Source of the DNA: Candidatus Omnitrophota bacterium
GTDB lineage: Bacteria; Omnitrophota; Gorgyraeia; 2-01-FULL-45-10; JBDRSA01
Direction: 5' to 3'
Assembly: GCA_043825275.1 (NCBI GenBank)
Contig: JBDRSA010000004.1
Span: 1 to 17,560, forward strand
Length of the DNA stretch: 17,560 nt
Shown: positions 866-17,560 of the stretch, piece by piece
Numbering within the stretch: the first letter of the stretch is position 1
How the letters are laid out: each line of letters starts with the position of its first letter
Notes under the pieces: model-generated
Database searches by the model: none
What the model was told of the DNA's origin: nothing
The model's input: only the letters and a program-made list of their open reading frames with translations
Position numbers and translations under genes: made by a program

Positions 866-958
866 ACCGGTTTTCTCATAAGGATATAACAAGCCCCGCG
901 CCTCCGGTCATGAGGACGCGCAAGGGCGGGGCGGGGCGAGCCATTATCAATAAAGCAG

Positions 959-1141
959 CTATCTCTTTTCTATGAGCACAAGTAACAAAAGAGCGATCGT
1001 AAGCAGCAGGCAGACCGCGGAAAAACTCATAATGGCGGTCGGAAAAGAGCCGAGAAGCGGAAGATTGGCCAGTTTGGATATCACCGCGACAATCAGGCTG
1101 ACGGCTCCAACAACTAATAACGTCCTTGAGAGATTCAACAT
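959..1141 (-). CDS. Small two-TM membrane protein (60 aa from internal Met)
   Basis: C-terminal part of ORF 959..1225: MLNLSRTLLVVGAVSLIVAVISKLANLPLLGSFPTAIMSFSAVCLLLTIALLLLVLIEKR. Two hydrophobic segments with a basic C-terminus. The start at 1141 is preferred because upstream residues look non-coding. Confidence 0.55.
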   Translation of the reverse strand: MLNLSRTLLVVGAVSLIVAVISKLANLPLLGSFPTAIMSFSAVCLLLTIALLLLVLIEKR

Positions 1142-1214
1142 ACATTCACCCTTCCTTTTACTCAAATACTTAGCATATATAGTGTATGATGTCAAGCGCG
1201 CTTCGTGAAAATAA

Positions 1215-1285
1215 CTAGAGGCCATCTCATAAATATCTGTGATGGCCTCTAGTCCCGTTAGAAGCTTTGCTTCTAACGGGGCTAG
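1215..1285. terminator. Two adjacent perfect 12-bp inverted repeats, possible transcription terminator or attenuator
   Basis: ctagaggccatc (1215-1226) pairs with gatggcctctag (1241-1252). cccgttagaagc (1254-1265) pairs with gcttctaacggg (1269-1280) across a TTT loop. They lie immediately downstream of the 1282..2712 minus-strand gene; reading minus, the distal arm is followed by ttatttt. Confidence 0.5.
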
Positions 1286-2712: not shown

Positions 2713-2729
2713 ATCTTTATCAAAACTCC

Positions 2730-3989
2730 TTACTTCCCTTCTTCCGCGCTCCTTTGTTCACAAGCAGTCGAGGCGACCCCTGCTCCGACCAGCACCCAGA
2801 AGAGTCCCGCGATCTCGCTCTGGCTCCAAAAATAGTCGACCAGTCCATGCCCCAGGAATCCTGCCAGTGAACAGAGGATCCCCAGCGTAATATATGTCTG
2901 TCCGAAACCATCTGACGCCCGTATGCCTTTATACAGCTTCCGCATAACAGCTCCGTACAACCACAAGAGCGCGAGCAGCCCGAAAAAACCGAGGTTGACC
3001 GTCGTTTCCAAAAAAATATTGTGCGTCCTGAAACGAGGAACGTTCTTCCAAAAGAACATATCCGCGCCCTGACCGCGAAAAGGGTACTCCTGAATAGATC
3101 GCAGAGCGCTCTTCGCATACTCGAGCCGGATCTTCTCCGTCGGCTCAAGGGTTCCTGTCGTGAACGAGCGAAAACCGAAAAGGTTAAATAAGAACGCTGA
3201 TACTATAATACCACAGAGCAAAAAGAAGAGGGCGATAATTTTCGGCTTTCTGTATTGTACCGCGAATATGGCCACGAAACAGGCAAAGGCGAAGAAGAGC
3301 CCTATGAGCCAGCCTTTCGTCCCCGAAAGAACCGCGCAAAAGATAAATAAAACAGTTAAAGATCCGTAGACGGCTCTCCGAAAAACGCTCGAATGAGGCC
3401 GGAAGATCCAAAAACACGCGGCGAGCGGAACAAGCGCGCCGAAAAATACGCTCATATTCGTCGGCCATCCAAACAGCCCGCAGATCCGGTGAGAACTGAC
3501 CTCGGCGCTTTCGAAGAATCGCCGGAGGCCATCTATCGCGTCATGACGAAAATACTGCGCGGCCACAAATACCGAGGCAATGCAGGCGCCGGCAAAAACA
3601 CAGGAGATCAGCCGCTCAAGCCGGCGTTCACTTGTTATAAAATTAATTATCGCGAAGGCGACGATGCCGAGGCCAAAGAACCGCGCCGTGTATTTCAACG
3701 ACCAGATCATCTTTTCTGACGGTATGACGCTTGAAAAAAGATGGATCCCTAAAAAAACGATGAAGGGATAAACGAGACCTCCCCCGTTCGGGACGTTCTC
3801 CCTGTTCGACAATATCGCGATCTCCCACAATATGATGAGAATGACGACCTCAAGCGCGAAAAAACTCTTTATCGCGGGAATCGTTAATCCGAGATTCTCC
3901 AGGGAAAAATCAAACGGAAGGAATAGAGCTATGCAGCAGCAGCAGTAAAAGACGGCGCGCCGAACGAACAAGGATAGTTTCATGGGCAA
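2730..3989 (-). CDS. O-antigen ligase / Wzy-like polytopic membrane protein (419 aa)
   Basis: Many hydrophobic segments. Large-loop region with LEYAKSALRSIQEYPFRGQGADMF and RTHNIFLETTVNLGFFGLLALLWLY, typical of the WaaL/Wzy_C superfamily (R..H.x motif, HN.xLE). Start could be the second Met at 3983. Confidence 0.8.
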   Translation of the reverse strand: MPMKLSLFVRRAVFYCCCCIALFLPFDFSLENLGLTIPAIKSFFALEVVILIILWEIAILSNRENVPNGGGLVYPFIVFLGIHLFSSVIPSEKMIWSLKYTARFFGLGIVAFAIINFITSERRLERLISCVFAGACIASVFVAAQYFRHDAIDGLRRFFESAEVSSHRICGLFGWPTNMSVFFGALVPLAACFWIFRPHSSVFRRAVYGSLTVLFIFCAVLSGTKGWLIGLFFAFACFVAIFAVQYRKPKIIALFFLLCGIIVSAFLFNLFGFRSFTTGTLEPTEKIRLEYAKSALRSIQEYPFRGQGADMFFWKNVPRFRTHNIFLETTVNLGFFGLLALLWLYGAVMRKLYKGIRASDGFGQTYITLGILCSLAGFLGHGLVDYFWSQSEIAGLFWVLVGAGVASTACEQRSAEEGK

Positions 3990-4124
3990 TTATCGGGAAG
4001 AGCCGGCGCGGGAATACCGCCGATCGTTCTTCGAACCGCGGGACAATGGCCCCGTCCGCGAACATAGGGAACGGCCGGATGTCCGCCGGGAAGAAATCCG
4101 CGGTCTCGTTCTATGGCGAAGGCG

Positions 4125-5111
4125 TCACTTAACTTCTGACTGTACGCCATCAGAACTCACAAAGCAGATCCTGTTCCTTCCCGTCTCCTTCGCGTAGTAC
4201 AGGCACTCATCGGCTTTCGCGACCAACGACCTCGGGTCTTTCGAGTCATCCGGATAGGACGAGAGGCCGATGCTGATGGTAAGATGGGCGGTCGTGAGAG
4301 CTTTCTTATCGATGAATTTTGAATTCGCCACGAGCATCCGCAGGCGCTTCGCCACAATAATGGCCTTTGCCTTATCCGTCTCCGGCAGCAGCGTCACAAA
4401 CTCCTCACCGCCGTACCTGAAAACGTGGTCGGTGAACCGGACGCTTCCTGAAAGGATCTGCGCGACCTTTTTCAGGGCCCAATCACCCGCCTGGTGCCCC
4501 TGAGAATCATTAAAATTCTTGAAATGGTCGACATCGATCATCATGCACGAAAGAGGCTTCATGTATTTTGCCGCCCGCATCAGCTCATCGGGAAGCATCG
4601 CGTCAAAATGCCTCCGATTGTAGATCTCGGTCAACCCGTCAAGGATCGACAGCCGCTGATACTGCTCCTTCTCTTTCGCCTCCTTCAAGAGGAGCTGGCG
4701 CTCAACCGCCCTGCGCACGACGACCTTGATCTCCTCAATGTTGAACGGCTTTGAGATATAGTCGTACGCGCCCTCTTTCAGGACCTCCATAGCGGATTGT
4801 ATTGACGCGTAGCCGGTTATGACAATGACGCAGACATCCGCCTTCGCGCTTCTGAATTTTTTTGTGACCTCTACGCCGTCAATACCCGGCATTCTCATGT
4901 CCGTTATCACAATGCTGAAATCGCTGTTGTTGACGAGCCTCACCGCCTCTTCGCCGCTTGACGCCGTACACACCTGGTAGCCGGATTCGGTCAAGACATC
5001 CTTCAGCATGCTGCGCATAATGTCTTCATCGTCTACCACCAGAATGCTAACCGCGGCCATCGCGTTCGCGACGGCGTCTCTCGATCTCTTAACGTTCTCC
5101 CGCTCAGCCAT
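4125..5111 (-). CDS. Response regulator receiver - GGDEF diguanylate cyclase (328 aa)
   Basis: Receiver: ILVVDDEDIMR...IVITDMRMPGIDG...VIVITGYAS...GAYDYISKPF. GGDEF domain: LDGLTEIYNRRHFD...MMIDVDHFKNFND..GHQAGD...VFRYGGEEF. An RxxD (RFTD) I-site sits exactly five residues before GGEEF. Confidence 0.95.
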   Translation of the reverse strand: MAERENVKRSRDAVANAMAAVSILVVDDEDIMRSMLKDVLTESGYQVCTASSGEEAVRLVNNSDFSIVITDMRMPGIDGVEVTKKFRSAKADVCVIVITGYASIQSAMEVLKEGAYDYISKPFNIEEIKVVVRRAVERQLLLKEAKEKEQYQRLSILDGLTEIYNRRHFDAMLPDELMRAAKYMKPLSCMMIDVDHFKNFNDSQGHQAGDWALKKVAQILSGSVRFTDHVFRYGGEEFVTLLPETDKAKAIIVAKRLRMLVANSKFIDKKALTTAHLTISIGLSSYPDDSKDPRSLVAKADECLYYAKETGRNRICFVSSDGVQSEVK

Positions 5112-5134
5112 GATTTTTTGCCGCTCCTCTTTTT

Positions 5135-6898
5135 TTATTTTTTAGGCTCTTTGGATTTCACTATCGGGAAGCTCAGTATAAAAGTGGTTCCTTTCCCCTC
5201 TTCACTCTCCGCGGCAACCGTCCCTCGGTGGGCCTGAACGATCGTATGGGTTATTGAAAGCCCGAGGCCTGTTCCGGATCTTCCTACCTTGCTCGTAAAA
5301 AAAGGATCGAAGATATTTGCCAGGTTCTCCTTCGAGATCCCGCTGCCGGAATCCGAAACACGGACCTCCACATACTCAAGCGGAGGCCTGTATCTCGTAT
5401 CGCTCTTGTTCAGAGCGGTCACCTTGATCACGCCGTTCTCGCCCATAGCGTCCTGAGCGTTCTGAATAAGATTCGTGAACACCTGCTGCAGCTGATTCGC
5501 GTTCCCGTTGATCTTCCTGAGGCCTTCCGGAGAGAACGCGGCCGATACTTTCATGTTCTTCTGTGAGAGCTGGAACTCCATCATGCTGACGGTATTCTCA
5601 ATAACGTCCTGGATATTTATCTCTTCCATCTCTTCGGACGATTTCCGCGAAAAATTCAGCAGGTTCGATATGATCCACTGACAGCGCTTCGATTCCTTCT
5701 CAACCATCTCAAGGTATCTGATCGACGTATCAATGACATCCTGTGAGGGGGTAGAGGATTTAAGCCTGGATAATATCAGCTGCACGTACCCGAGGATCCC
5801 GCCGATAGGATTGTTCAGCTCGTGGGCGACGCCGGCGCTGAGCTGGCCGAGCGAGGCCATTTTCGAGGATTGGACGACCTGGTTATACGTCTGCCGCAGT
5901 TCATCCATCTGATCCTTGGCCTTCCCACGGTCGACCTGTTTATATTCGATCAACCGGTCCTCTTTCACCCTAAGCTCATCGGTTACCCGGAGGTGCGCGG
6001 CCTTCAAGGCGATCAGGCCGGTTATACTCTGAATGAGGCGGATCGCCCCTTTCAACAGCATCTCATCTCTTTTCGCGGCCGCCCCGATGACGCCGAAGAA
6101 TGCCCCCCGGTACTCAATGGGCACCAGAATAACCCCCCGGGACCCCTGCTGAAAAAATATCTTTTCTACTTCTTCAAATTTCTTCCCCCCCAAAAGACTC
6201 TTCTTAAAAACGGCTTCCTTCAATCGTATCTCGCGTATCGACGTCCCCTCTTCGTCAAGAGGGATATCTCTTCTTTCGGCCAGGCCTTCGGGGAAGAGCG
6301 GGTAAATGGTCGCCTTCTTCTTATCGCCGCTTATCAGTAGAAGAGCCGCGGAGTCTATATATTGGATCGATCGAAGGCCGTTCCTGGCTGCCTCGAGCAG
6401 ATCGCTCGTCGTTACCCCTGACGAGAGGATCTCCTGGAATTTTTGAAGGAATGAATTGCTTTGGCTGAAACTGCCGAGCGAAGATATCATCTGAGAACAG
6501 GCATGATCGATGTAGGCGATCTCGCCTTTCTCTTCTTCTATATGGCCTTCGCCGCAATACCCTTTTACTTTCTTTACCAGAACGGTCATCGGAGACAGGA
6601 TCCTGTCAAACAACGGAAAAGTAATGAGACAGACCGCCCCCAGGCTTAAAACCGCTACGAGCGCGGAAGAAAATATTACGGTGGTAAACTCCTTGCTCGC
6701 GAAAATACTGACAAGCAGCCCCGCCTCAATAAACAGAACGACCAGAACCACTCCAATAACAAAGATTTTTATGATTTTATCTTTCAAGAACGGCCATCTT
6801 TCTTTTTTCTTGAGGCTTTTAATGAAATATAGCACCACTCTTTGTGCTTTGTCAAGTTTAAATTCCTCTGTCGAAATTCCTCTGTCGGTTATTGACAC
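5135..6898 (-). CDS. GAF-containing sensor histidine kinase (587 aa as called; true start may be downstream, e.g. GTG near 6838)
   Basis: Two closely spaced TMs, a GAF-like region, H-box SLGQLSAGVAHELNNPIGGILGY, N-box NLIQNAQDAM, G1 VSDSGSGI, F-box IFDPFFTSK and G2 GTGLGLSI. Confidence 0.95.
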   Translation of the reverse strand: MSITDRGISTEEFKLDKAQRVVLYFIKSLKKKERWPFLKDKIIKIFVIGVVLVVLFIEAGLLVSIFASKEFTTVIFSSALVAVLSLGAVCLITFPLFDRILSPMTVLVKKVKGYCGEGHIEEEKGEIAYIDHACSQMISSLGSFSQSNSFLQKFQEILSSGVTTSDLLEAARNGLRSIQYIDSAALLLISGDKKKATIYPLFPEGLAERRDIPLDEEGTSIREIRLKEAVFKKSLLGGKKFEEVEKIFFQQGSRGVILVPIEYRGAFFGVIGAAAKRDEMLLKGAIRLIQSITGLIALKAAHLRVTDELRVKEDRLIEYKQVDRGKAKDQMDELRQTYNQVVQSSKMASLGQLSAGVAHELNNPIGGILGYVQLILSRLKSSTPSQDVIDTSIRYLEMVEKESKRCQWIISNLLNFSRKSSEEMEEINIQDVIENTVSMMEFQLSQKNMKVSAAFSPEGLRKINGNANQLQQVFTNLIQNAQDAMGENGVIKVTALNKSDTRYRPPLEYVEVRVSDSGSGISKENLANIFDPFFTSKVGRSGTGLGLSITHTIVQAHRGTVAAESEEGKGTTFILSFPIVKSKEPKK

Positions 6899-6920
6899 TA
6901 AGGCGATTTAGTGCTATATT
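6892..6920 (+). promoter_or_regulatory. Predicted sigma70-type promoter for the motor operon
   Basis: TTGACA (6892-6897), 17-bp spacer, TATATT (6915-6920). This gives a start ~40 nt before the ATG at 6969. Confidence 0.6.
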
Positions 6921-6959
6921 TAAATGTAAATTAGGCATTAATATTGTCGATGGAAAGAT

Positions 6960-7673
6960 TTGGCTCTTATGCATACTTCACATAGTACCATCCGGCGGAG
7001 CGGGAAGATATTATTGACAACTCTCTTCGCTCTTCTCGCGCTCTTTTTTTCCGCTTCCGAATCCTCCGCCCGGGATCCGATGCGGTCAGGTTCCCGAGAG
7101 GCCGAGGCCTACGACGATGGCATCTTCCGGGAAAACAGAGGCTACCTTGTCAGTAACGAGAATATCCCCGAGGAGCGCTCAAAATCAACCCTCTTCAGAC
7201 GCGGAGCGTTCAATAGGACTGAGACGTCTCGTCAGCGAAAGAAGAGAGCTCCGATAACAAAAATATCGTACGGGCAAAAAAAATCCCGGGAGATCTCTAA
7301 ACCGTCTCAACAGGAGTCTTCGTACATTCGTACTCTTGAAGACGCTCTCCTGCAGGAACGAGAGCGCTCGCTGCGCCAAACGAAAGAGATCGAGACGCTC
7401 AGGAGTAAACTGGAACGGGCTCTCAGGCAGCTGTCGCTGGCGACCCAGAAGATAATGGACCTCAAACAGGAGCGCCCCGCGTCTTCAAAGAGAATTTCAC
7501 AGACCTACCAGGTCAAAGCGGGCGATTCTCTCTGGTCGATCGCCGCGATGAAAGAGATCTACGGCAATCCGAAGAAGTGGCTTCTTCTCTATCACGCCAA
7601 CAGGGATCAGATCTATGATCCGAACCTTATCTTCCCGAACATGGTACTCTTGATCCCGCGTCTCAACGATTAA
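6960..7673 (+). CDS. Exported coiled-coil protein with C-terminal LysM domain (TTG at 6960 or ATG at 6969)
   Basis: Signal peptide-like ILLTTLFALLALFFSASESSA. Coiled-coil YIRTLEDALLQERERSLRQTKEIETLRSKLERALRQL. LysM: YQVKAGDSLWSIAAMKEIYGNPKKWLLLYHANRDQIYDPNLIFPNMVLLIPR. Confidence 0.85.
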   Translation: MALMHTSHSTIRRSGKILLTTLFALLALFFSASESSARDPMRSGSREAEAYDDGIFRENRGYLVSNENIPEERSKSTLFRRGAFNRTETSRQRKKRAPITKISYGQKKSREISKPSQQESSYIRTLEDALLQERERSLRQTKEIETLRSKLERALRQLSLATQKIMDLKQERPASSKRISQTYQVKAGDSLWSIAAMKEIYGNPKKWLLLYHANRDQIYDPNLIFPNMVLLIPRLND

Positions 7674-7683
7674 GGAAATATCT

Positions 7684-9726
7684 GTGGGGACCGACAACTA
7701 CACTACGGTTGGACGCTTGAAAACAACGCGCAAACTGTTTTACAGTACTCTGCCGCTGAAGGCGGCCTTCTCTGTATTGGTATGTTCGCTGGCGATCCTG
7801 CCGCCTGCCGCGGCTGCTCAGAGACGGGCCGACGAAGCGATATTGGAAAGTGACATGGCGACCCGCCTCGAATCGATGGTAGAAAAAGTCGTCGGAAAGG
7901 AGCGCTCGATCGTAAAGGTAAAGGTCACCCTTTCGCGCCCCCAGGCTGAAGCTCCTCTCGGCAGCTTAAGAGGGAAGCTGGGCGACATGCCCGGTGTCGC
8001 GTTCTCGAAGGCGGAGCCCAAAAAAGAAGAGACGGTAAAACTCTCGGTCGGCCCCACGATCGAAAAGATCGCGATCACGATCTTTCTCGACAACAAGATC
8101 GCCTCCGATAAGATCGACAGCATAAAAGAATCCATTCCCCGGTGGATGGATCTCGATTTCGAACGCGGCGATACGCTGAAGATCGAGCTGAAGCCGTGGA
8201 AAGAGCTTCCGCCGGAAGATATCGCGATAAAACAGCTGTCGTTCCTGAAAGGAAATCTTTTGGCGATCGTCGCCATCGCCAGTATCGTCATCCTGGTCTT
8301 CGTCCTTATGGCCGTACTTGCCGTACCGGCCAGGAAAATGATCAAACAGCGGTTGAAGATGCCGTCCGACGAGAAAAAGCTCAAGGATCTCGCCAAGGTG
8401 ATGGGTGACCTGAAAAACGTTATCATTAAATCGACCGCCGGCGCGGCGAAGAACGTCGATACCCTTCTTGAGGATATCAAAGGGATCCTCGCGAGAGCCC
8501 CCTCGAGAAGCGACGGCCTGCTTGAAGAAATACGGGATGTGCTTGAAAATATCGCCACAAAATCGATGAAGGGGGGCGAGGGAGGCTCCGGCGGGGCCGG
8601 CGGCTCGGCCGGATCCGCCGCCGGTTTACAGGCGCCCGAGTTCCTCCAGGCACTCAGGGATACGCTCGCGCCGATGGGCGGCGACGGAGGGTTATCCCCC
8701 GAGGCGCTCCAGGTGCTCCAGAGCATCGAGGAGCACATCAAAAGACAGGTTGACGGCGTTGCCGCGGGCGACATTCTTGACGAGCCGTTCAAATATCTCA
8801 ACTCTATCTCGACCGGTGAGATCTCCCTGTATATCGACGGCGAGGAGCCGAGGATCGCCGCCATAATACTGGGACATATCGACCCGAACAAAGCGGCGGA
8901 AGTCGTAGCTGAGCTATCCGACGAAAGAAAGATAGAGGTTTCGGTCGCCATGGCAACCCTTGTCGAGACCGATAAAGTCGCCGCCGAAATAAAGGACTTT
9001 ATCCGCCGCAAAATGCCCGAAGTCAAGCTGAGAAGCGACTTTCAGCCTATTACGGGAAGCAAGGCGCTCGCGGAGCTTTTGAGCTCTTCAACGCTTGATA
9101 TTACGAATTATGTCCTCGACAATCTCCAGAAGAGTAACCCCTCGATCGCGGAAGCGGTAAAGAAGGAGATGTTCCTCTTTGAGGATATCGCGGGCCTGCA
9201 GAATGAAGGCGTCGCGGAGCTGTTAAAAAGCACCGACCGGCATCGTCTTAGTCTTGCCCTTCTGAAGGCGTCGGACGCGGTTAAGACCAAATTTTTTAAC
9301 AACATGACCGAGCGCGCCGTCGCGATGGTCAAGGAGGAGATGAGCGCCCTGCAGCCCGTATCCGATGAGGGTTTGAAAGACGAAATTCTGTTTTTTGAGG
9401 ATATCGTAAATCTCGGCCAGAAGAGATTTCAGCAGATCTTTTCGAATATCGACCGAAATATGATAAAGCTCGCGCTCAAAGGGTCGTCCGAAGAAGTCCG
9501 TACTAGGGTCTTCGCGGTCATGACCGAGCGCGGAGCGGCAATGCTGCGGGAAGATATCGAGGTTATGCCGAACATCGCGCGGGAACGCACGCTCGAGGCG
9601 CAAAAAGAGATACTGGATTACGTGCGTAAACTGGAGATGGAACCTATTGTCGCTCAACAGGAGATCATCGCCAAGGTCAGAGAGCTCGAACGCGCCGGAA
9701 GGCTCTCGCTCGGATCGCGGTCCTGA
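7684..9726 (+). CDS. Truncated FliF (C-terminal RBM3-like + TM) fused to FliG middle/C-terminal domains (680 aa)
   Basis: GTG start with an upstream AGGAAA. FliF-like: RLESMVEKVVGKERSIVKVKVTLS...VKLSVGPTIEKIAITIFLDNK...IPRWMDLDFERGDTLKIELKPW, followed by a TM. FliG-like: DGEEPRIAAIILGHIDPNKAAEVVAELSDERK (cf. EHPQTIA.ILS.LDP..AAEVL), MFLFEDIAGL..., LALKGSSEEVRTRVFAVMTERGAAMLREDIEVM and EAQKEILDYVRKLE. Confidence 0.85.
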   Translation: MGTDNYTTVGRLKTTRKLFYSTLPLKAAFSVLVCSLAILPPAAAAQRRADEAILESDMATRLESMVEKVVGKERSIVKVKVTLSRPQAEAPLGSLRGKLGDMPGVAFSKAEPKKEETVKLSVGPTIEKIAITIFLDNKIASDKIDSIKESIPRWMDLDFERGDTLKIELKPWKELPPEDIAIKQLSFLKGNLLAIVAIASIVILVFVLMAVLAVPARKMIKQRLKMPSDEKKLKDLAKVMGDLKNVIIKSTAGAAKNVDTLLEDIKGILARAPSRSDGLLEEIRDVLENIATKSMKGGEGGSGGAGGSAGSAAGLQAPEFLQALRDTLAPMGGDGGLSPEALQVLQSIEEHIKRQVDGVAAGDILDEPFKYLNSISTGEISLYIDGEEPRIAAIILGHIDPNKAAEVVAELSDERKIEVSVAMATLVETDKVAAEIKDFIRRKMPEVKLRSDFQPITGSKALAELLSSSTLDITNYVLDNLQKSNPSIAEAVKKEMFLFEDIAGLQNEGVAELLKSTDRHRLSLALLKASDAVKTKFFNNMTERAVAMVKEEMSALQPVSDEGLKDEILFFEDIVNLGQKRFQQIFSNIDRNMIKLALKGSSEEVRTRVFAVMTERGAAMLREDIEVMPNIARERTLEAQKEILDYVRKLEMEPIVAQQEIIAKVRELERAGRLSLGSRS

Positions 9727-9785
9727 CCGCTCTCGATTCATTGATCTCAGTCATCAAAAGAAACCGGTGGAAGAAAGGATCAAGC

Positions 9786-9980
9786 ATGATCATCGTTACA
9801 AAGTTTGACGGCAAGGAACTGGTAGTGAACGCCGACCTTGTAAAGTTCGTCGAAGCGAAACCTGACACTATCATGACGCTCACCACCGGTGAAAGGATCA
9901 TCGTAAAAGAACCCCGCGATGAAGTTATCAGCCGGATCATTAAGTATAAGCAGTTGGTACATCAACCCCCCGTCCAATAG
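9786..9980 (+). CDS. flbD: FlbD/SwrD family protein (64 aa from the second Met of ORF 9741..9980)
   Basis: MIIVTKFDGKELVVNADLVKFVEAKPDTIMTLTTGERIIVKEPRDEVISRIIKYKQLV matches the FlbD pattern (I.VTRLNGK...LN.DLIE.IE..PDT.ITL..G.K..VKE....VI..I..Y). AAAGGA lies just upstream of the ATG. Confidence 0.88.
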   Translation: MIIVTKFDGKELVVNADLVKFVEAKPDTIMTLTTGERIIVKEPRDEVISRIIKYKQLVHQPPVQ

Positions 9981-9995
9981 AACAGAGAGGCGACC

Positions 9996-10751
9996 ATGGC
10001 GATAACAACTATAACCGGGCTTCTCCTGGCGGCGTTCTTTCTTCTTTTCGGTATCGCGACACGCGGCGGTATGTCCCGGATCATGGTCTTCGTCGATCCG
10101 GGATCTCTTATGCTGGTTGTCGGCGCCAGTATTTCGGCGCTCATCACGAACTATACGTTTAAAGAGATATGGCTGGCCATGAAAGCTATCCGTTTCGCCT
10201 TTCTGCCGAAACCCCCGATGCCTGAAGCGGTTATCGATCTGATCGTGCGCATGGCCATCAAAGCGCGCAAAGAAGGGTTCATTTCACTGCGGGAAGAGTC
10301 ATCCGGCGAAAAATTTCACCTGGTCGACCTGGGTGTCGGCCTCATCGCCGACGGGACCGATCCCGAGGTGACCCGGGAGATCCTCGACGCCGCGAGCTTC
10401 ACCGAGGGCGGCATGCTCGCTTCAAACGAGCGTGTCTGGAGGGACCTGTCGGTTTATACTCCCATGTTCGGTATGGTCGGAACGCTGATCGGCCTTATCC
10501 TGATGCTGCGGGGTTTGTCCGACCCCGCGACCATCGGCCCGGCAATGGCCATGGCGCTCATAACAACGCTCTACGGCATCGTTATCGCGGGTGTGCTTTG
10601 TCTTCCGATCGCCGGAAAGATCAAAAATTATAACGATCGGGTAGCGGTCCTGAGAACGCTTATGATCGAGGGCCTCATCTCCATCCAGGCGGGTGACAAC
10701 TCCCAGATCGTTGAGGCGCGCCTCAAGGCTCATATCGCCAAAGAATCCTAA
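9996..10751 (+). CDS. motA: MotA-family stator protein (251 aa)
   Basis: Four hydrophobic segments; VDPGSLMLVVGASISALI, YTPMFGMVGTLIGLILML..LSDPATIGPAMAMALITTLYGIVIAGVLCLPIAGKI and MIIEG-like MIEGLISIQAGDNSQIVEARL are diagnostic of MotA. GAGAGG is upstream. Confidence 0.95.
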   Translation: MAITTITGLLLAAFFLLFGIATRGGMSRIMVFVDPGSLMLVVGASISALITNYTFKEIWLAMKAIRFAFLPKPPMPEAVIDLIVRMAIKARKEGFISLREESSGEKFHLVDLGVGLIADGTDPEVTREILDAASFTEGGMLASNERVWRDLSVYTPMFGMVGTLIGLILMLRGLSDPATIGPAMAMALITTLYGIVIAGVLCLPIAGKIKNYNDRVAVLRTLMIEGLISIQAGDNSQIVEARLKAHIAKES

Positions 10752-10758
10752 TAAAAGA

Positions 10759-11553
10759 ATGCCCGTTCACAGCCTCTATAAAAAAAAGAAAGCTTTCCCT
10801 TCGGTCTCCGGAGAAAGCGAGCTTGAAGACAGCTGGCCGCCTACCTGGTCCGTCAGCTTTGCCGACCTGACGACGCTGCTAATGTCGGGGTTCATCCTCT
10901 GGTACGCTCTTACCGCGATGAAGATCCCGCCGGAACTTCTCGCGATCAAAGAGATCGATCAGGTTATTCCCGCCGATATCAAGATCATGGAAAACTTCGA
11001 ACAGGCGGGCGCCGATCAATCAAGGATCATGCTCAAGATCAAGGCCCTCACCCCCAAACAGCGCAGGCTTGTCAGAGAGATGAAGGCCCTGAGGGAGCTC
11101 AAAGAGACGATCGAGCGCCAGATAACCCAGGCCGGCCTTGACGACAAAGTAGACGTTCGGGTAGAGATCGACGCGGTGCTCATAACGCCGCGTGAGCCTT
11201 TTCTCTTCGGGGAGGGGGACGCCCGGCTCAAACAGAGCTCGTTCGCGCTGCTTGACACAATTATCGAAACGATACGGTCACGGTCATACTACCGGATACG
11301 CGTCGAGGGCCATACCGACAGCGCGCCGATCGGCCCTTTCCGCAAGATCCTGTTCCCCACGAATTGGGAGCTTTCCTACAAACGGGCGATAACGGTAGCT
11401 CAATATCTTATTGCCGGAAATATATCGCCCGCGGCCATCGGGGTGACCGGATACAGCGATACAAAACCGAAGGTTGTGGGCGATGACCCGGAAAGCAGAG
11501 AGAAGAACAGAAGGGTCGACATTTATATTTATCTCAAGAAGGTCGAAAGGTAG
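10759..11553 (+). CDS. motB: MotB-family stator protein, copy 1 (264 aa from internal Met; the ORF track starts at 10693)
   Basis: WPPTWSVSFADLTTLLMSGFILWYAL with the conserved TM Asp (D36). OmpA/peptidoglycan-binding region: RVEGHTDSAPI....NWELSYKRAITVAQYL...GVTGYSDTKP....REKNRRVDIYI. The ATG at 10759 is 7 nt after the motA stop. Confidence 0.93.
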   Translation: MPVHSLYKKKKAFPSVSGESELEDSWPPTWSVSFADLTTLLMSGFILWYALTAMKIPPELLAIKEIDQVIPADIKIMENFEQAGADQSRIMLKIKALTPKQRRLVREMKALRELKETIERQITQAGLDDKVDVRVEIDAVLITPREPFLFGEGDARLKQSSFALLDTIIETIRSRSYYRIRVEGHTDSAPIGPFRKILFPTNWELSYKRAITVAQYLIAGNISPAAIGVTGYSDTKPKVVGDDPESREKNRRVDIYIYLKKVER

Positions 11554-11565
11554 CGTCCTCAAGCC

Positions 11566-12318
11566 ATGATCGAATCAAGAATTCAACGGCGCGATCAAGC
11601 GACATCAACGCTTCAGGAGGTTTGGCCGCCGAAGTGGTTCTTTTCGTATTCGGACCTGTCGGTGCTCCTGATGACCTTCTTTATCATTCTCGCCACGATG
11701 CTTTCCCTGAAGATCCCGCTCTACGTGTTTGCCGACGCGAGATTAAAACCGCTCCTGGATGAACGGATGGTCGTCTTTGAAGAGATCAGGCGGCTCACGG
11801 AACTCGAGAAGATGATGATGGATGAATTTCAATCAATGCGGCCCGATCAGGTCAAGCGCCTCATCGCGCTCGAGAAGATGAATGAGTTGAAAAAAAGTAT
11901 CGATAAGTACATCAAGAAGATGCAGCTGGAAAATTTTATCAAGATCGAAGCCGGAAAGTGGAAGCTCCGGCTGGTGCCCTTGTCTCCCTTGCTGTTCGGC
12001 CGCGGCGACGCCGTTCTGCGTCAGGAAGCGAAAGATTTTCTCGATCAGATAGCGGAATTCGCCGCAATGTACCCGTCGCGCCTTTCGATCGAGGGGCACA
12101 CGGACGACACCCCTATCAACACCCGTCAATTCTCCTCAAACTGGGAACTTTCCGCGGCCCGCGCGAACAGCATTATGCGCTATCTGGCCACCGAACACAA
12201 GATCCCCTCTGATAAGATCGACGCGGTCGGATACGGGGAATACCGGCCGCTCGTCCCCAACGACTCGGATACAAACCGCGCCTCCAACCGCCGGGTCGTT
12301 ATCGAACTGCTTATTTGA
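11566..12318 (+). CDS. MotB-family stator protein, copy 2 (250 aa)
   Basis: WPPKWFFSYSDLSVLLMTFFIIL with the conserved TM Asp (D30). SIEGHTDDTPINTRQFSSNWELSAARANSIMRYL...DAVGYGEYRPLVPNDSDTNRASNRRVVIELL is an OmpA-like peptidoglycan-binding domain. Confidence 0.93.
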   Translation: MIESRIQRRDQATSTLQEVWPPKWFFSYSDLSVLLMTFFIILATMLSLKIPLYVFADARLKPLLDERMVVFEEIRRLTELEKMMMDEFQSMRPDQVKRLIALEKMNELKKSIDKYIKKMQLENFIKIEAGKWKLRLVPLSPLLFGRGDAVLRQEAKDFLDQIAEFAAMYPSRLSIEGHTDDTPINTRQFSSNWELSAARANSIMRYLATEHKIPSDKIDAVGYGEYRPLVPNDSDTNRASNRRVVIELLI

Positions 12319-12352
12319 ACAGTCGTAGAGCTTTTACATGCCACGACTGTTC
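12317..12352. terminator. Inverted repeat at the end of the motor operon
   Basis: gaacagtcgt (12317-12326) pairs with acgactgttc (12343-12352), 16-nt loop. It overlaps the stop of the second motB copy and has no clear T-tract. Confidence 0.35.
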
Positions 12353-12388
12353 ATCCTGAGCGAAGCGAACGATCTCATTCCATAACTT

Positions 12389-12409
12389 CCTCTCCCCGGA
12401 GGGGAGAGG
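12389..12409. repeat. GC-rich perfect hairpin in the convergent intergenic region, likely dispersed intergenic repeat or terminator
   Basis: cctctcccc gga ggggagagg. It lies next to CATCCTGAGCGAAGCGAACGATCTC, a string resembling common bacterial intergenic repeats. Confidence 0.45.
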
Positions 12410-12467
12410 ATTGAGGTGAGGGGTACCCTTGAATGCTTGTACATTGCTACCGGCTTCGGTATCCCGG

Positions 12468-12761
12468 TCAAAACTTCATCTGGGATCTCACCCTCGTAGG
12501 ACTGCCGTCTTCTGACGAGTGATACTTTATCTGAGGATTCATCCAATACCTAAGATAGCGGGTAATAGTCTTTCCTCCGACAATATACCCGCAAAGAGCC
12601 GCCATTATCACAATAAAAACCTTGAGCAGTATCGTGGCTCTAAATCGGCTCTTCCTTGCTATCTTCTCTTTTATCTTTATTTTAATACGGTTTTGCGAAC
12701 GGCCAAACGTATTCCCGCCCGGAGCTTTTTCCGTATTCTCATCATGTCTGAAATTATCCAT
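12468..12761 (-). CDS. Small single-TM protein (98 aa from internal Met of ORF 12468..12872)
   Basis: MDNFRHDENTEKAPGGNTFGRSQNRIKIKIKEKIARKSRFRATILLKVFIVIMAALCGYIVGGKTITRYL... Basic segment then one hydrophobic helix. It is co-directional with and just downstream of the 12838..14316 gene. Confidence 0.4.
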   Translation of the reverse strand: MDNFRHDENTEKAPGGNTFGRSQNRIKIKIKEKIARKSRFRATILLKVFIVIMAALCGYIVGGKTITRYLRYWMNPQIKYHSSEDGSPTRVRSQMKF

Positions 12762-12837
12762 GTACTTTTCCGTTATCTTTTGCCATGAACGATCTTTGTT
12801 CCCGTCAATTATCCGGCTTCCGCTGTATCTCCGGCCT

Positions 12838-14316
12838 CTACTCAACGGTAAAAGTACCGACCACCCAGTCACCGTATTTTTCGTAGTTTACATACGGCTG
12901 TTTGAACGTATCGCTTGGATAAGTCGGCTGGTCGATTTGATAAACCCCGTCCTTTCCTCTGTAGTATCTTACATAGCTTGCTCCCTCCTGAGTCTTTTGT
13001 TCAATAAAAAGACCTGCTTCAATATCATAAATGCCGGGGGGCGTATCATCAGGTATGTACACTCGCTTCGGCCCCTGGGTAATAATCTCACCAACCTTCC
13101 ATTCCGTCGCTTGAGGAATCAGTGAAGAATCGGCATTAATATAGCCGGCCTTATCGTTCTGTCGATAAATATGCATGAATAACGCGTAATTTTTCTTAAA
13201 CTTTCTTGATATTGAAAAAGATAACTCTATATCGATCGTTCCACCGGGTCGTACACTGTTTTGAGAAAGTTTTGTCCCTTCGAAAGTAACAAAAGGGCCC
13301 GTCTCATTGCCCAGATTGAAAGAGACAAGCCAAACATCATCGAGATATATTGTCGCCTGAGCGCCGCCGCGATAAAAATTAAAATCGTCTATATCGCCAA
13401 GGTCGATCTTCTCGCCGACAGCCGATAAATTAATAACATACGGCTTATCTTTCTCCGTTGTACCGGGTATTCCAACCGTAAATCTTCGTCCCGTTCTGTC
13501 TTTGATCTGCAAGGTAAGGGGAGTATTTGAATACGTGTGGCCATCCTTCTCCGGTCCATAGACGTAAAAACGCAATTCATCATAGAGTAACCAATCGTGG
13601 TATTTCGGATTACTATATCTAAAAAAATTGTTGAGTCGAACCGTAGGCATGCCGCCTTCGTTGAATGTTATTTTGGCCGCCTGCTTCCCTTGAGCAACAT
13701 TCTCTTTTTCCTGCTCAATAACGGCGCCGGATAGCTCCCATTTCCTTACATCGACCAGATCTTCAAAATCACTTATTACAAGATCTTCGATCTTCTTTTC
13801 CTCATTCTCATCTGCCGGCTCGACCACACGCAACGTCCCGACAATAAAATCTTTTATATCCGCGTTGGTATACGGCTCCCTGATATAGATCGGTCCCGCA
13901 GATGTCTGTTTCGTCGAATAGAGCCCCATCCTTACACCATACTCTCCCGCCGGTATGTCAGAAGGAATAAAAACATTGACCGGACCTACGGAAACCGCGT
14001 CACCAACTACCCACATCGTTGTAGGCGTCGCGGGCGAAAAATCATTATTGATAACGATCGCGTGCGTCTTGAGATCTACAATATGCAGATAAAACCCGTA
14101 ATCTTCCCAAATATTCTTGGTGATCGAAAAATCAGCGTTCAAGAAGAAGATCTCCCCTTTTTGGACCTTATCGGGAATATCGAGCGTCCCTAAAGTTATG
14201 ATCGCCTTTCCTTCCCGGACAATAGATTTCGCTTGAACGGTAAAAGAAAAGATGGTGCCAATTAAAAGAATAGGTATAGATACCCGCCGAATATGATAAA
14301 ACAGCATCTTTTTCAT
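12838..14316 (-). CDS. Secreted multi-domain protein with two Wzt-C-like beta-sandwich modules flanking a CBM-like module (492 aa)
   Basis: Signal peptide VSIPILLIGTIFSFTVQA. Modules FYLHIVDLKTHAIVINNDF...VSVGPVNVFIPSDIPAGEYGVRMGLYS...IKDFIVGTLRV and YALFMHIYRQNDKAGYINAD...ITQGPKRVYIPDDTPPGIYDIEAGLF...DWVVGTFTV. Middle: VISDFEDLVDVRKWELSG...YLDDVWL. Confidence 0.7.
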   Translation of the reverse strand: MKKMLFYHIRRVSIPILLIGTIFSFTVQAKSIVREGKAIITLGTLDIPDKVQKGEIFFLNADFSITKNIWEDYGFYLHIVDLKTHAIVINNDFSPATPTTMWVVGDAVSVGPVNVFIPSDIPAGEYGVRMGLYSTKQTSAGPIYIREPYTNADIKDFIVGTLRVVEPADENEEKKIEDLVISDFEDLVDVRKWELSGAVIEQEKENVAQGKQAAKITFNEGGMPTVRLNNFFRYSNPKYHDWLLYDELRFYVYGPEKDGHTYSNTPLTLQIKDRTGRRFTVGIPGTTEKDKPYVINLSAVGEKIDLGDIDDFNFYRGGAQATIYLDDVWLVSFNLGNETGPFVTFEGTKLSQNSVRPGGTIDIELSFSISRKFKKNYALFMHIYRQNDKAGYINADSSLIPQATEWKVGEIITQGPKRVYIPDDTPPGIYDIEAGLFIEQKTQEGASYVRYYRGKDGVYQIDQPTYPSDTFKQPYVNYEKYGDWVVGTFTVE

Positions 14317-14407
14317 TGTTATCTTTCTCCTTTTTTAAAATACTAAAAATACATATATCAGACAGAGGGTCTATCTTTTTGTCAGCCAGTTTTCGACGCA
14401 AATGGCT

Positions 14408-15499
14408 TTACTTCACTACTTCAATATATCCGACTATATGATCTTTAAAAGCTTGGCTTGCGTACCGCAAGCGGGGATAGCCGGTACGAAAATCAAAGGC
14501 TCCACTGTTGAGCGCGCCTCTTGAATACGATCCTCTTGATCGGGGATTAAATAGCCCGATCTGCACCGCATAGGCGCCCGGTTGAAAATCTTTCGGAATA
14601 AAGATCCTTTCCGGGCCAATTTCATATATGCCGCTTTCGGCCCACTGAGAAGTAGGGACTAATGGATCTCTGTCCGCGTTGATAAACCATCGCCGTTTTG
14701 ATGACTTTTTTTTCAATTCATTTGATTTTGAAATATGAATAAACGCTTTATACTTTTTGTCCAGCGCTTTTAAGGCCACCATACTGCAGGAAAGTAAAAT
14801 TTCCGTGCCGCGTCGAACAGTATCCGGAGCGCGCAACGAAACAAAGTCTACCATAGGATCTTCCAGGATATCTCTCTTTGCAAGATCTTCCCTATCAAGC
14901 CTTACATTGTCCAAATAAAACTCGCGATCTTCGTTTTGGGGACCGGTAAAGAGTTTAAGATAGACGATATTCGTTAGATCAACTGTATCAGCAATATCTT
15001 TGAGATCGATCCGAATATTATTTTTCCCACTTTGCATCTTTATTTTCTGCTGCGCATATCGGCCGGCTTTATCCTTTATTTTTATGTCAAGGAGTACAGG
15101 GGCATCCTGCGGGTTCCATAGCTCAAACCGTAAAGATTTAAAACGAGACCAATCTTTTTCCCCGCGAGGACCTATATTAGTGTCTTCAAGCCCTACTCCT
15201 GGAGTAGCGCTCCCTCCATGTTCTTTACTGTATAGAGTTACATGGGCGGAGTGTTTTCCAGATGACGCGTACCGGGAAGAAAGCTCAACAAAGCTTCCGT
15301 CAAGATCCCACGCCCAAAAATCCTTCGACCCCTCAAAATCACTAAGAACTTTTTCGTGAGGCGTATAAAAATAATTGACTGCCGGTTTTGTATAATTAAT
15401 AAACGTGTTAATAACTCCCGTTCTTTTTATGGAAAACCCGATCAATAAGAGCCATCCGAGGATAACACTAAATATAACTAAAAAATAATTTTTTTTCAA
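14408..15499 (-). CDS. Membrane-anchored protein with a CBM-like module and a Wzt-C-like module (363 aa)
   Basis: N-terminal TM NYFLVIFSVILGWLLLIGFSI. VLSDFEGSKDFWAWDLDGSFVELSSRYASSGKHSAHVTLY...FYLDNVRL, then YKAFIHISKSN...WFINAD...YEIGPERIFIPKDFQPGAYAVQIGLF...KDHIVGYIEV. Confidence 0.7.
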   Translation of the reverse strand: MKKNYFLVIFSVILGWLLLIGFSIKRTGVINTFINYTKPAVNYFYTPHEKVLSDFEGSKDFWAWDLDGSFVELSSRYASSGKHSAHVTLYSKEHGGSATPGVGLEDTNIGPRGEKDWSRFKSLRFELWNPQDAPVLLDIKIKDKAGRYAQQKIKMQSGKNNIRIDLKDIADTVDLTNIVYLKLFTGPQNEDREFYLDNVRLDREDLAKRDILEDPMVDFVSLRAPDTVRRGTEILLSCSMVALKALDKKYKAFIHISKSNELKKKSSKRRWFINADRDPLVPTSQWAESGIYEIGPERIFIPKDFQPGAYAVQIGLFNPRSRGSYSRGALNSGAFDFRTGYPRLRYASQAFKDHIVGYIEVVK

Positions 15500-15532
15500 A
15501 ATATAGCCTGCCGTTCGAATGCCGAGAAATAT

Positions 15533-17560
15533 TCACTTCGCCAATTCCTCTATCAACCTTCCGATCCTCTCTCTTTCTTCAAAAACCCGCTTATTGTCTC
15601 TCGTATAGTAGATTGAGGTTTTGACAATAGCGTTATTTACGCGCAACGCGTCTTCGGCCTCAGATAAACCAGCATGATAATCGCTCGAAAAGCCGTTCTT
15701 TTTTATTAAGTTTACCGTATCGTTTAACAGATAAAAGTACTCGTAATCCTCGAGGCCATCCCGAAGGACCTCGAGCCGGATAGAGCCGACCGGGTTCTCT
15801 CCTTCCGGATCCGGATAATACAACGACCCGTTTCCGTTCTGCTCTGAAAAGGTCATAGCGCTCTTCCACGGATCGGTTTTGCTCCAATAGTTTACACACC
15901 AATAGAGCAACCCTTTGGCGCCGTACTTCCAGCATATCCATGGGATGATCCGGTGCTCGATCGCGGGAACATCCAGATTGAGGTTCGGGCATGGCCTCGT
16001 CGTTCCGGCAACATACATCCAGATATCCTTGCCGGATCTTTGAAATTCGGAAACGGCGGGCTGGACCAATTCATCAACTCTTACACACCATATATCAACA
16101 TCGGGATATCCTTTCCGCGGCGCCATAGTAACAAGATTCTTTATTCCCGGATTACCCTCATGAATAAGCCGGGTAAAATCTTTGACCCGATGAAGGGTTT
16201 CATCGAATATATACGCGTAGGAGATGTTGAGCCAGCCTTTTTCTTCCAGGTGCTTTCCGTATTCTCCAAAGACGCCTACCACAGCGTTTTGATCGGTATA
16301 TCCGTACCACTTATCCGTCCACTCTCCCCGGTATCCCCAGGGCCATTCCTGGGCAATGCCGAAACAGGCTTGGCCGTTTTCAAGATAGAACGCCGCCTCT
16401 TTGTCGAATTTGTCAAACGCCAGATGATATTTCCCATCCTCTTCACCTAAGAACTTCGGATTGCCTACATTGTGTATCGGGCTGATGCGGTGCTTGAGCA
16501 TATCAAGATAATAGCTCTCAAGCAGCCTTTGGACCCGAAGTTTCCAAAATACGCCATCTTCATGCTGTTTCCGCGGATGACTTGATTTGATATGATGGGC
16601 ATAAAAGTCAAAAGCGGTTTTCAGGTTCGCTCTTTTGGGAATAGAGAAACCCCAAACGTGAAGCGTTACATCTACGCTTTTTGCCTTTTTCCCCGATGGA
16701 TGTATGATCACCGTACTCTTATATTTCCCGGGTAGAGTTTCCTTTGGGACATACACCGTGGCCCAGACCGGTTGAACAGTCTCTTTTGGGACATCAAAAG
16801 GCTCCTTGAGCGGGATCAGAGGATCGGGCCATAATCCGACTTTAACGGTATTGTAGTATGGTTTTTCTGTTTTGACATAGCCCACTTTATATAACGTTAC
16901 ATTCTCTTTTCCGATCCCGCGGCCATTCTTCTCAAAAAAATCATCTTCCAACAAAACCTCTACGTTTTGCAGATCATCCTCTCCGGGAACAACCACGATC
17001 TGAAAGCTCTCGTATTCTCCCCTTGCCGCGTAAATAGTTACGCTATCTCGATCGCTCGTATAGTCCAAATAAGCTCTCTCCTGAAATATCTTCTTGAGGG
17101 AATCAGCGGCCATTACTCCATAACCGTATTCATCTGCAAATATAACCGGTTCAGGAGACCTCTTTTTTATCGAGATCGCGCCGACCGCCCAATCATGAAT
17201 ATCCTGATTGCTGTAAGGTAACTTTTTATAGTATGCCCCGGTCGCTGTTCTCGTTTGGGAGGAAAGCCCCATAGTCACCCTATATTCTCCCTCGGGAAGA
17301 TCAAGCGGAACGTATATATAGAACGGTCCCAGATCTATCCTTTTATTGGGCTCCCAAAGCTTCTGTGGTCCCAAAGCATGGATATCAGCGTTTACATACG
17401 CCCCCGGCCAGGTTCCTTCAAGGTGTAAAAAAAGAAAATGTTCTTTCGGAAGTCGTTCCGTGATCTCCAAGCCGCATGAAATCGCAACCATATCCCCCGT
17501 AAACAGCTCAGCGGGAGATATATCAATGTTCAAAAGGTTCACCTGTTCTTCGCCATATGA
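15533..17560 (-). CDS. Wzt-C-like module plus DUF4091 / GH123-like glycoside-hydrolase-type protein; 5' end probably beyond the window
   Basis: HFLFLHLEGTWPGAYVNAD...IDLGPFYIYVPLDLPEGEYRVTMGLS, then YAARGEYESFQIVVVPG, PLIPLKEPFDVPKETVQPVWATVYVPKETLPGKYK, YAYIFDET, GLLYWCVNYW, GSIRLEVLRDGLEDYEYFYLL. A GTG at 17542 is possible, but the frame is open to 17560 and no signal peptide is present. Confidence 0.82.
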   Translation of the reverse strand, partial: SYGEEQVNLLNIDISPAELFTGDMVAISCGLEITERLPKEHFLFLHLEGTWPGAYVNADIHALGPQKLWEPNKRIDLGPFYIYVPLDLPEGEYRVTMGLSSQTRTATGAYYKKLPYSNQDIHDWAVGAISIKKRSPEPVIFADEYGYGVMAADSLKKIFQERAYLDYTSDRDSVTIYAARGEYESFQIVVVPGEDDLQNVEVLLEDDFFEKNGRGIGKENVTLYKVGYVKTEKPYYNTVKVGLWPDPLIPLKEPFDVPKETVQPVWATVYVPKETLPGKYKSTVIIHPSGKKAKSVDVTLHVWGFSIPKRANLKTAFDFYAHHIKSSHPRKQHEDGVFWKLRVQRLLESYYLDMLKHRISPIHNVGNPKFLGEEDGKYHLAFDKFDKEAAFYLENGQACFGIAQEWPWGYRGEWTDKWYGYTDQNAVVGVFGEYGKHLEEKGWLNISYAYIFDETLHRVKDFTRLIHEGNPGIKNLVTMAPRKGYPDVDIWCVRVDELVQPAVSEFQRSGKDIWMYVAGTTRPCPNLNLDVPAIEHRIIPWICWKYGAKGLLYWCVNYWSKTDPWKSAMTFSEQNGNGSLYYPDPEGENPVGSIRLEVLRDGLEDYEYFYLLNDTVNLIKKNGFSSDYHAGLSEAEDALRVNNAIVKTSIYYTRDNKRVFEERERIGRLIEELAK

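Follow-up and report, generated by a model that had tools for sequence, protein, structure and literature searches.

A flagellar-type rotor-stator gene cassette in a surface-polysaccharide locus of a Candidatus Omnitrophota genome: a candidate non-flagellar, ion-driven motor

Introduction

What can the ring and stator proteins of the flagellar motor do at a locus where no flagellum is encoded? This question is raised by six consecutive genes on contig JBDRSA010000004.1 of a Candidatus Omnitrophota metagenome-assembled genome (MAG), GCA_043825275.1. We call the entire contig (17.56 kb; positions 1-17,560) the window, and the six genes at 6960-12318 on the plus strand the cassette; a stretch identical to part of the window is also present in a Logan assembly. 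An earlier reading of the sequence by itself, hereafter the sequence-only reading, had proposed that the cassette is a reduced rotor-stator module rather than just some flagellum's motor locus. Our analysis supports this proposal on the basis of gene co-occurrence in relatives, polysaccharide gene context, domain losses in the rotor protein and a carrier MAG reported to encode no flagella. We lean, with modest confidence, towards a non-flagellar, ion-driven rotor-stator module that is derived from, or shares ancestry with, the flagellar motor and that forms part of a surface-polysaccharide system in this clade.

Gene content of the cassette

Open reading frame (ORF) listing and translation, together with Pfam, bore out the six co-directional and tightly packed genes described before, and their intergenic gaps are 10, 59, 15, 7 and 12 nt. 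The first gene (6960-7673, TTG start) encodes protein X, in which a single N-terminal signal or transmembrane (TM) helix is followed by a disordered region, a coiled coil and a C-terminal, peptidoglycan-binding LysM domain (residues 183-233, Pfam E 1.6e-6). The second (7684-9726) encodes the rotor protein of 680 aa, with Pfam matches to FliG_M (3e-13) and to FliG_C in two stretches (3e-43). A FlbD/SwrD-family protein of 64 aa (9786-9980, Pfam FlbD E 2e-23) is followed by a MotA/PomA-type stator A subunit of 251 aa with four TM helices (9996-10751; Pfam MotA_ExbB 6e-23, with MotA_N). The last two genes encode MotB paralogs of 264 aa (MotB1, 10759-11553) and 250 aa (MotB2, 11566-12318), each with Pfam MotB_plug and OmpA domains and a TM helix containing Asp. 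Flagellar equivalog models of NCBIfam were all matched by cassette proteins with every score below the cut-off, indicating that these proteins are divergent members of flagellar-type families.

Domain architecture of the rotor protein

The layout of the rotor protein was drawn from the family alignment and an AlphaFold2 (AF2) model, whose predicted local distance difference test score (pLDDT) is 63 overall and 75-85 in the folded domains. An N-terminal hydrophobic TM or signal helix precedes a periplasmic domain (residues approximately 46-175; nt 7819-8208) resembling the third ring-building motif (RBM3) of FliF, which has an alpha-beta-beta-alpha-beta fold in the model and an insertion of about 40 poorly predicted residues between strands 1 and 2. 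A second TM helix (residues approximately 188-215) and a Gly/Ala-rich cytoplasmic linker of about 150 residues lead to FliG_M (residues 367-447), a truncated first copy of FliG_C including the torque helix (residues 479-560) and a complete second copy (residues 570-670).

Pfam and NCBIfam gave no significant FliF match in the N-terminal half, where YscJ_FliF_C appeared only at E 0.095; because the FliF-like part is invisible at the Pfam threshold, structural and profile-profile comparisons were needed. A Foldseek search of the model against PDB ranked FliG first and then a run of FliF RBM3/S-ring chains (7bk0_B, 6sd3_Q, 6sd1_A and others; probability 1.0, E 2e-3 to 1e-2, target TM-score approximately 0.5). 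A local hidden Markov model (HMM) of the N-terminal domain matched genuine full-length FliF-FliG fusions in their YscJ_FliF_C region, and hhalign aligned this domain with the RBM3 and collar of those fusions (95.8% probability, E 7e-9). In this alignment, the long FliF beta-collar is an insertion relative to the rotor family, and a motif 'RGD-x-hydrophobic...P-aromatic' just before the TM helix is common to both, the last pair being PW in the rotor family and PF in FliF. The earlier designation of this protein as a partial FliF-FliG fusion was right: the protein retains RBM3 and a minimal collar, joined to FliG parts. Among solved structures, Thermotoga FliG_MC is the nearest to these FliG parts (E 1e-25), and Foldseek superposed the last FliG_C on the MotAB-bound FliG fragment 8ucs_H with a TM-score of 0.78, a root-mean-square deviation of 1.8 A and 35% identity.

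What the rotor protein lacks is equally characteristic. RBM1/RBM2 (YscJ_FliF, PF01514) gave no match in it even at E <= 10, whereas the genuine full-length FliF-FliG fusions do match PF01514; the protein therefore differs from a flagellar FliF, which has RBM1, RBM2 and RBM3 and in which RBM1/RBM2 house the export gate. FliG_N is absent according to Pfam, NCBIfam and structure alignments, similarity to FliG beginning at the M domain (approximately FliG residue 105), and the FliM-binding EHPQR motif is degenerate, with EHPQ changed to EEPR, EEAR or EESK across the family and the Arg to Ala. Thus neither the FliF-tail-binding N domain nor the FliM-binding motif of a flagellar FliG is found. The torque helix, on the other hand, has its equivalents of K264, R281 and D288/D289 in both FliG_C copies when compared with E. 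coli and Thermotoga FliG (roles of these residues: PMC12505986, PMC7564593). The duplicated region corresponds to 9118-9693 of the window (residues 479-670), and its first copy consists of the MFxF motif, ARM_C and the torque helix and stops just past the latter. The duplication is specific to the clade of the window, because the relatives P0018, P0020, P0021 and P0023 have a single FliG_C.

Stator proteins

The closest solved relatives of the MotA protein are PomA and the MotA proteins of Aquifex (A. aeolicus) and Clostridium (E about 2e-39 to 1e-33). Its Arg91 (R88 in PomA and R90 in E. coli) does not vary among the 18 orthologs and relatives compared, and the protein retains both pore prolines as well as the Thr residues that align with PomA T158/T186. 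At residue 99 (nt 10290-10292; E96 in PomA and E98 in E. coli), 15 of the 16 polysaccharide-type loci have Arg and L021 has Lys, and the distant relatives L018 and L023 have Glu. Preservation of diagnostic motifs, which the sequence-only reading had claimed, thus holds for the MotB Asp, MotA Arg91 and prolines, and the torque-helix charges, but fails for the MotA position equivalent to E98 and for EHPQR.

Both MotB proteins are B subunits of the flagellar kind, having a single TM helix with the channel Asp (FADL in MotB1 and YSDL in MotB2, respectively), a plug and an OmpA-like peptidoglycan-binding domain. MotB1 gave MotD/MotS-like NCBIfam matches below the cut-off, and the closest solved relative of MotB2 is the flagellar MotB of Clostridium sporogenes (E 1e-29). 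Each paralog forms its own orthologous group across all loci, showing that the duplication is old. A heterodimeric MotB1/MotB2 axle is plausible from these sequence relationships.

Conservation of the cassette

The sequence-only reading had named failure of the six genes to co-occur in relatives as evidence that would count against it. We constructed a synteny map from gene tables and local tblastn searches, covering 14 distinct loci, and the order protein X, rotor fusion, FlbD, MotA, MotB1, MotB2 was found in all 14, with gaps only at contig ends. The loci belong to Omnitrophota, Candidatus Auribacterota and other MAGs of the Planctomycetota-Verrucomicrobiota-Chlamydiota (PVC) group. Since the same order recurs at cassette identities of 30-70%, the arrangement is not due to chance. 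An ortholog of protein X lies directly 5' of the fusion gene in every locus, with a near-invariant LysM block, and FlbD identity across all loci is 43-77%. Fusions of this family are rare. Searches found 14 proteins in a set of 5.8 billion, about 14 clusters in 1.84 billion representatives and, in 185,579 species genomes, 12 loci, all of them from PVC-group or unnamed MAGs. In L021, one of the relatives with a single FliG_C, both MotB genes are on the strand opposite to the fusion, FlbD and MotA (3567-5167), showing a local inversion.

No flagellar export, switch (FliM/FliN) or axial gene was found within 10 kb of the cassette in about 20 loci, distant relatives included. The absence of rod, hook, filament, FliM/FliN and export genes that had been noticed for the operon itself therefore extends to every locus that we have seen.

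Genomic neighbourhood

The cassette lies inside a polysaccharide locus in all loci. Components of a Wzx/Wzy-dependent exopolysaccharide pathway were found as Wzy_C in the window and as Bac_transf, Wzy/Wzx, GT2/GT4 glycosyltransferases, Polysacc_synt, deacetylases and exosortase EpsH/EpsI in the orthologous loci, and no Wza/Wzc was seen within 10 kb of the cassette in the clade of the window. In loci of the Auribacterota type, the order upstream of the cassette is a coiled-coil protein, Bac_transf, EpsI, exosortase EpsH, a deacetylase, Metallophos, and 494-aa and 344-aa proteins; the order downstream is a small membrane protein, GT4, a deacetylase, GT4, a hexapeptide acyltransferase, a GFO oxidoreductase, GT4 and Wzx.

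Co-distributed with the cassette are three related proteins, which in the window are encoded on the minus strand 3' of the cassette. A secreted protein of 492 aa (12838-14316) has no Pfam match, and its AF2 model (pLDDT 86) consists of a signal helix and three beta-sandwich domains, for which Foldseek found resemblance to the carbohydrate-binding or accessory modules of xanthanase, Endo-D and tandem CBM22, and to macroglobulin-like domains. This family has 16 proteins only, several of which are on the same contigs as the fusion. A shorter paralog of 363 aa (14408-15499), with a signal or TM helix and weak Agarase_CBM/CBM_11 matches, is the ortholog of the neighbours of approximately 344-370 aa in other clades. 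The third is a GH123-like glycoside hydrolase (15533-17542; Pfam GH123_cat and GH123 N-terminal domains), with orthologs in L005, L021 and L022, whose N-terminal part is paralogous to the proteins of approximately 495 and 350 aa. Beta-sandwich paralogs adjoin the cassette in every clade, including the single-FliG_C relatives L021 and L022, and thus the conserved system comprises at least nine genes, not six.

The remaining genes of the window are also on the minus strand. At the contig start, an ORF running off the end (approximately 1-864) encodes a Metallophos phosphoesterase, assigned by a tblastn match to the Metallophos of other loci, and is followed by an exported protein of 476 aa (1282-2712) and a Wzy-type polymerase with about 11 TM helices (2730-3989, Pfam Wzy_C). 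A receiver-GGDEF diguanylate cyclase (4125-5111; Pfam, with GGEEF and an RxxD I-site) and a histidine kinase (5135-6898, Pfam) come next, both being divergently oriented from the cassette. The closest relative, L002, shares Metallophos, an exported protein of approximately 470 aa, Wzy and then the kinase/cyclase pair; this pair is found only in these two loci and is absent from those of the Auribacterota type. The flanks described by the sequence-only reading, a sensor kinase/cyclase pair and envelope genes, are accordingly as it stated.

On the plus strand, a sigma-70-like promoter-like site (6892-6920; TTGACA-17-TATATT with TG, 11 of 12 consensus matches) lies 40 nt 5' of the TTG start at 6960, found as a consensus match alone in the consensus scan. 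A strong minus-strand promoter-like site at 6855-6826 lies inside the longest histidine kinase ORF (GTG at 6898), and the L002 ortholog of the kinase is 36 residues shorter; the true kinase start is probably downstream of the one called for the ORF. Scans of the window gave no convincing internal terminator and no Rfam or tRNA hits. Between MotB2 and the 492-aa gene, a small ORF (12468-12872, minus strand) encodes a basic stretch and then one TM helix. It has no significant similarity to the membrane protein of approximately 94 aa found 3' of MotB2 in other loci, and the two share the position and the combination of a basic stretch with a TM helix.

Distant relatives

The HMM of the rotor N-terminal domain also matches shorter or TPR-tailed RBM3-TM-FliG_MC fusions, one of which (TPR-tailed) is named Elusimicrobiota. 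Their loci hold MotA and MotB, and FlbD where listed, but have other neighbours. In L018 (1-17051)/L019 and in L025 (1-13238), which represent two distinct lineages, a giant ORF (14,454 aa, 10,883+ aa and 16,931 aa) and an outer-membrane barrel-TPR protein lie immediately upstream of the fusion, MotA and MotB; the barrel is UPF0164/FadL/PorV-like, and among these loci FlbD is present in L018/L019 only. Giant ORFs are a hallmark of Omnitrophota. In L023 (10001-19196) and L026 (6910-18699), the fusion, MotA and MotB are followed by an FG-GAP/CHU_C adhesin-like protein of 1,300-1,556 aa and a PorP/SprF-TPR protein, CHU_C being the type-B C-terminal domain of the type IX secretion system (T9SS). 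Only in L026 does FlbD lie between the fusion and MotA, and only there do Wza and Wzc precede the module. The order in L023/L026 is reminiscent of an arrangement for adhesin secretion or gliding, with a FliG/MotAB module as its driver.

L024 (3590-7907) of Desulfomonilia encodes an RBM3-TM-FliG_MC fusion of 552 aa with a clear PF08345 match, flanked by genes for a sigma-54 activator, a TPR protein and a small protein resembling MgtE_N. Since no MotAB was found within 10 kb of it, not all mini-fusions travel with stators. Two other proteins were also observed, each of which may be a real fusion or an assembly chimera: P0014 (537 aa), a ROK-family domain fused to an enterobacterial-like FliG_MC, and P0026 (996 aa), in which an N-terminus resembling FliM is combined with repeats and two FliG_MC units.

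Proposed mechanism

In the mechanism that we favour, the 680-aa fusion would oligomerise through its single RBM3-type periplasmic domain into an inner-membrane ring, each subunit placing one FliG M-C unit beneath the membrane; the separate joint between FliG_N and the FliF tail would be unneeded because the two parts are covalently fused. A MotA pentamer would surround a MotB dimer, possibly a MotB1/MotB2 heterodimer, that is held to peptidoglycan through the OmpA-like domains. Ion flow through the conserved Asp channels would turn the MotA pentamer, whose cytoplasmic face, with the invariant Arg91 and with Arg99, would push against the charged torque helices and turn the ring; owing to the FliG_C duplication, there would be two torque helices per rotor subunit. 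FlbD would assist stator function, as in flagellar motors. A ring of this kind could neither build nor spin an axial filament, because RBM1/RBM2, an export gate and a rod are missing. Its periplasmic face may instead act on the LysM/coiled-coil protein X and the secreted beta-sandwich proteins, which are putatively glycan-binding, and its likely job would be to move, extrude or organise the polysaccharide made by Wzy. In the lineage of the window, the kinase/diguanylate cyclase pair probably ties expression or activity to cyclic di-GMP (c-di-GMP).

Several points weigh against this mechanism. MotA has Arg at the essential-Glu position (E98/E96). In flagellar motors, the Glu at position 98 pairs with FliG R281. 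We looked for charge covariation between MotA residue 99 and the residue before the R281 equivalent and found no clean compensating change: FliG near this position reads 'TER' in the exopolysaccharide type, but 'SEGGK' in L018 despite its MotA Glu. Arg99 without a compensating FliG change implies that the canonical pairing of charges may not apply. The AF2 confidence for the fusion is moderate, and the Foldseek E-values for RBM3 are modest. What links the cassette to polysaccharide is its gene neighbourhood, and the different neighbours in distant relatives imply that the output may not be polysaccharide-specific. For the genome of the window itself, known from the 17.56-kb contig, we infer the non-flagellar role, and some Omnitrophota are motile.

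Alternative explanations

One alternative is that the cassette does no mechanical work and is a regulator or scaffold, i.e., a sensor of ion-motive force or envelope stress, or a platform controlled by c-di-GMP that switches polysaccharide synthesis, echoing the FliG-EpsE clutch of Bacillus. The kinase and cyclase genes adjoining the operon in the window and L002, a PilZ gene near one distant relative, the MotA Arg that may alter canonical torque coupling, and the fact that no output shaft is evident are all in keeping with this idea. However, the kinase/cyclase pair is missing from most loci, and the Asp of both MotBs, the pore prolines and Arg91 of MotA, and the torque-helix charges are conserved over large evolutionary distances, which is expected if ion-coupled movement is under selection. 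We regard a non-rotating device as rather unlikely.

The sequence-only reading had left the output of the motor among gliding, envelope or polysaccharide remodelling, and a surface appendage. A motor for surface motility or for large surface proteins, comparable with GldLM/SprB or AglRQS/Glt and merely co-located with polysaccharide genes, accords with the distant fusion and MotAB relatives that adjoin FG-GAP/CHU_C adhesin-like proteins with PorP/SprF, or giant ORFs with an outer-membrane barrel-TPR protein. Within 10 kb of the cassette in the clades of the window and of Auribacterota, however, there is neither such an adhesin nor a giant ORF, and the conserved partners are polysaccharide genes and proteins resembling glycan-binding ones. 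This explanation appears unlikely to us, and gene context favours polysaccharide over gliding or a surface appendage as the output in this clade.

A further possibility is that the cassette serves as the motor locus of an ordinary or a second, divergent flagellum whose other genes would be located elsewhere in the genome. Each of the five motor-type proteins is of the flagellar and not of the Exb/Tol type, and the order FlbD-MotA-MotB is one known from flagellar operons. Against this, a rotor without RBM1/RBM2, FliG_N and the FliM-binding EHPQR, the lack of flagellar genes at the loci and the membership in a polysaccharide cluster are difficult to reconcile with an ordinary flagellum. One carrier genome points in the same direction: for Candidatus Erginobacter occultus, which carries the cassette (protein P0012; loci L004/L009), a MAG of 95% completeness with type IV pili has been described, and its describers report that flagella are encoded by none of the Auribacterota MAGs from Ace Lake (PMC9324843). 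Flagella go unmentioned in the main text of a large Omnitrophota survey, and the supplements covered name none of MotA, FliG, FliF and FlhA. Taken together, the missing flagellar genes, the carrier reported to be flagella-less and the lost domains and motif make an ordinary flagellar role improbable.

A decaying remnant of a lost flagellum, such as the flagellar gene remnants that non-motile species are known to have (PMC12199754), or an anti-phage system of the Zorya kind, to which the weak ZorB matches of the MotB-type proteins might point, is scarcely credible, because all ORFs are intact, order and motifs are conserved across two phyla, no ZorA, ZorC or ZorD match was found, and MotA is PomA-like without the ZorA tail. 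PADLOC gave generic ZorB-MotB similarity only, and Zorya was rejected.

Having weighed these alternatives, we return to the polysaccharide-linked rotor-stator module. A wider hypothesis, which we put forward tentatively and hold to be possible rather than probable, places the cassette as one branch of a multi-phylum set of FliG-ring/MotAB rotary machines that never build flagella and power work at the cell surface, on polysaccharide here and on giant proteins or T9SS-type adhesins in the relatives. Such machines might be descendants of the flagellar motor or survivors from a time predating its union with type III export.

Relation to known systems

The closest known machine is the flagellar motor's core, with which the cassette shares a homologous ring domain (RBM3), the M and C domains of FliG with their charged torque helix, FlbD, a PomA-like MotA with the Arg90 equivalent and pore prolines, and MotB with a plug, Asp and an OmpA-like anchor. 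It differs in that RBM1/RBM2 and FliG_N are absent, FliF and FliG parts form one polypeptide, EHPQR is lost, FliG_C is doubled, the MotA E98 equivalent is Arg, there are two MotBs, and the genes reside in a polysaccharide locus with no FliM/N, export gate, rod, hook or filament genes nearby.

Among described proteins, the one nearest in architecture is the truncated FliF-FliG_M fusion of Chlamydiaceae (CT719 type; Bergeron 2016), which has approximately 330 aa with RBM2, one further RBM and a FliG_M-like region only; it lacks FliG_C as well as partners of the MotAB or FlbD kind, and its link is to the injectisome (PMC4768692). The present protein does not belong to this type: it has 680 aa, contains an RBM3-like domain, carries FliG_M and two FliG_C, and travels with stator genes.

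Ion channel motors of the A5B2 type encoded with envelope or surface-polymer functions, namely AglRQS-Glt/Nfs of Myxococcus, GldLM-T9SS, TolQR, ExbBD and ZorAB, would be similar to the cassette in these general respects. AglRQS has two B-type subunits and drives deposition of spore-coat polysaccharide. These systems, however, have A subunits of the Exb/Tol or GldL type and no FliG ring, and their output is delivered through the B subunit or TonB/TolA/GldM, whereas the stator of the cassette appears to belong to the flagellar clade and would face a FliG-bearing ring.

Our literature searches found no paper describing the cassette, and the sole prior mention found was a remark in a preprint on Elusimicrobiota, in which free-living members without flagellar structural genes were noted to have motAB, flbD and fliG with a role called enigmatic (bioRxiv 10.1101/2022.07.08.499144). 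That preprint lists genes only, with no architecture, FliF-like domain, synteny or polysaccharide link. The cassette would be a variant of the flagellar and 5:2 motors without a characterised precedent.

Biological significance

Until now, the generation of torque by FliG has been associated with the flagellum. A conserved rotor-stator that works in the absence of an export gate, a switch complex and an axial structure would, if true, be a new use of the flagellar motor, and the cassette would then provide a minimal system of six proteins for ring assembly and torque generation. It also bears on the evolution of the flagellum, namely on whether the rotor-stator or the export apparatus came first. 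The role of rotor proteins in species without motility is a question already raised in a published survey (PMC12199754), and the cassette makes it testable. For Omnitrophota, Auribacterota and Elusimicrobiota, uncultured groups whose surface biology is largely unknown, the cassette is a candidate energy source for the handling of surface polymers or giant proteins.

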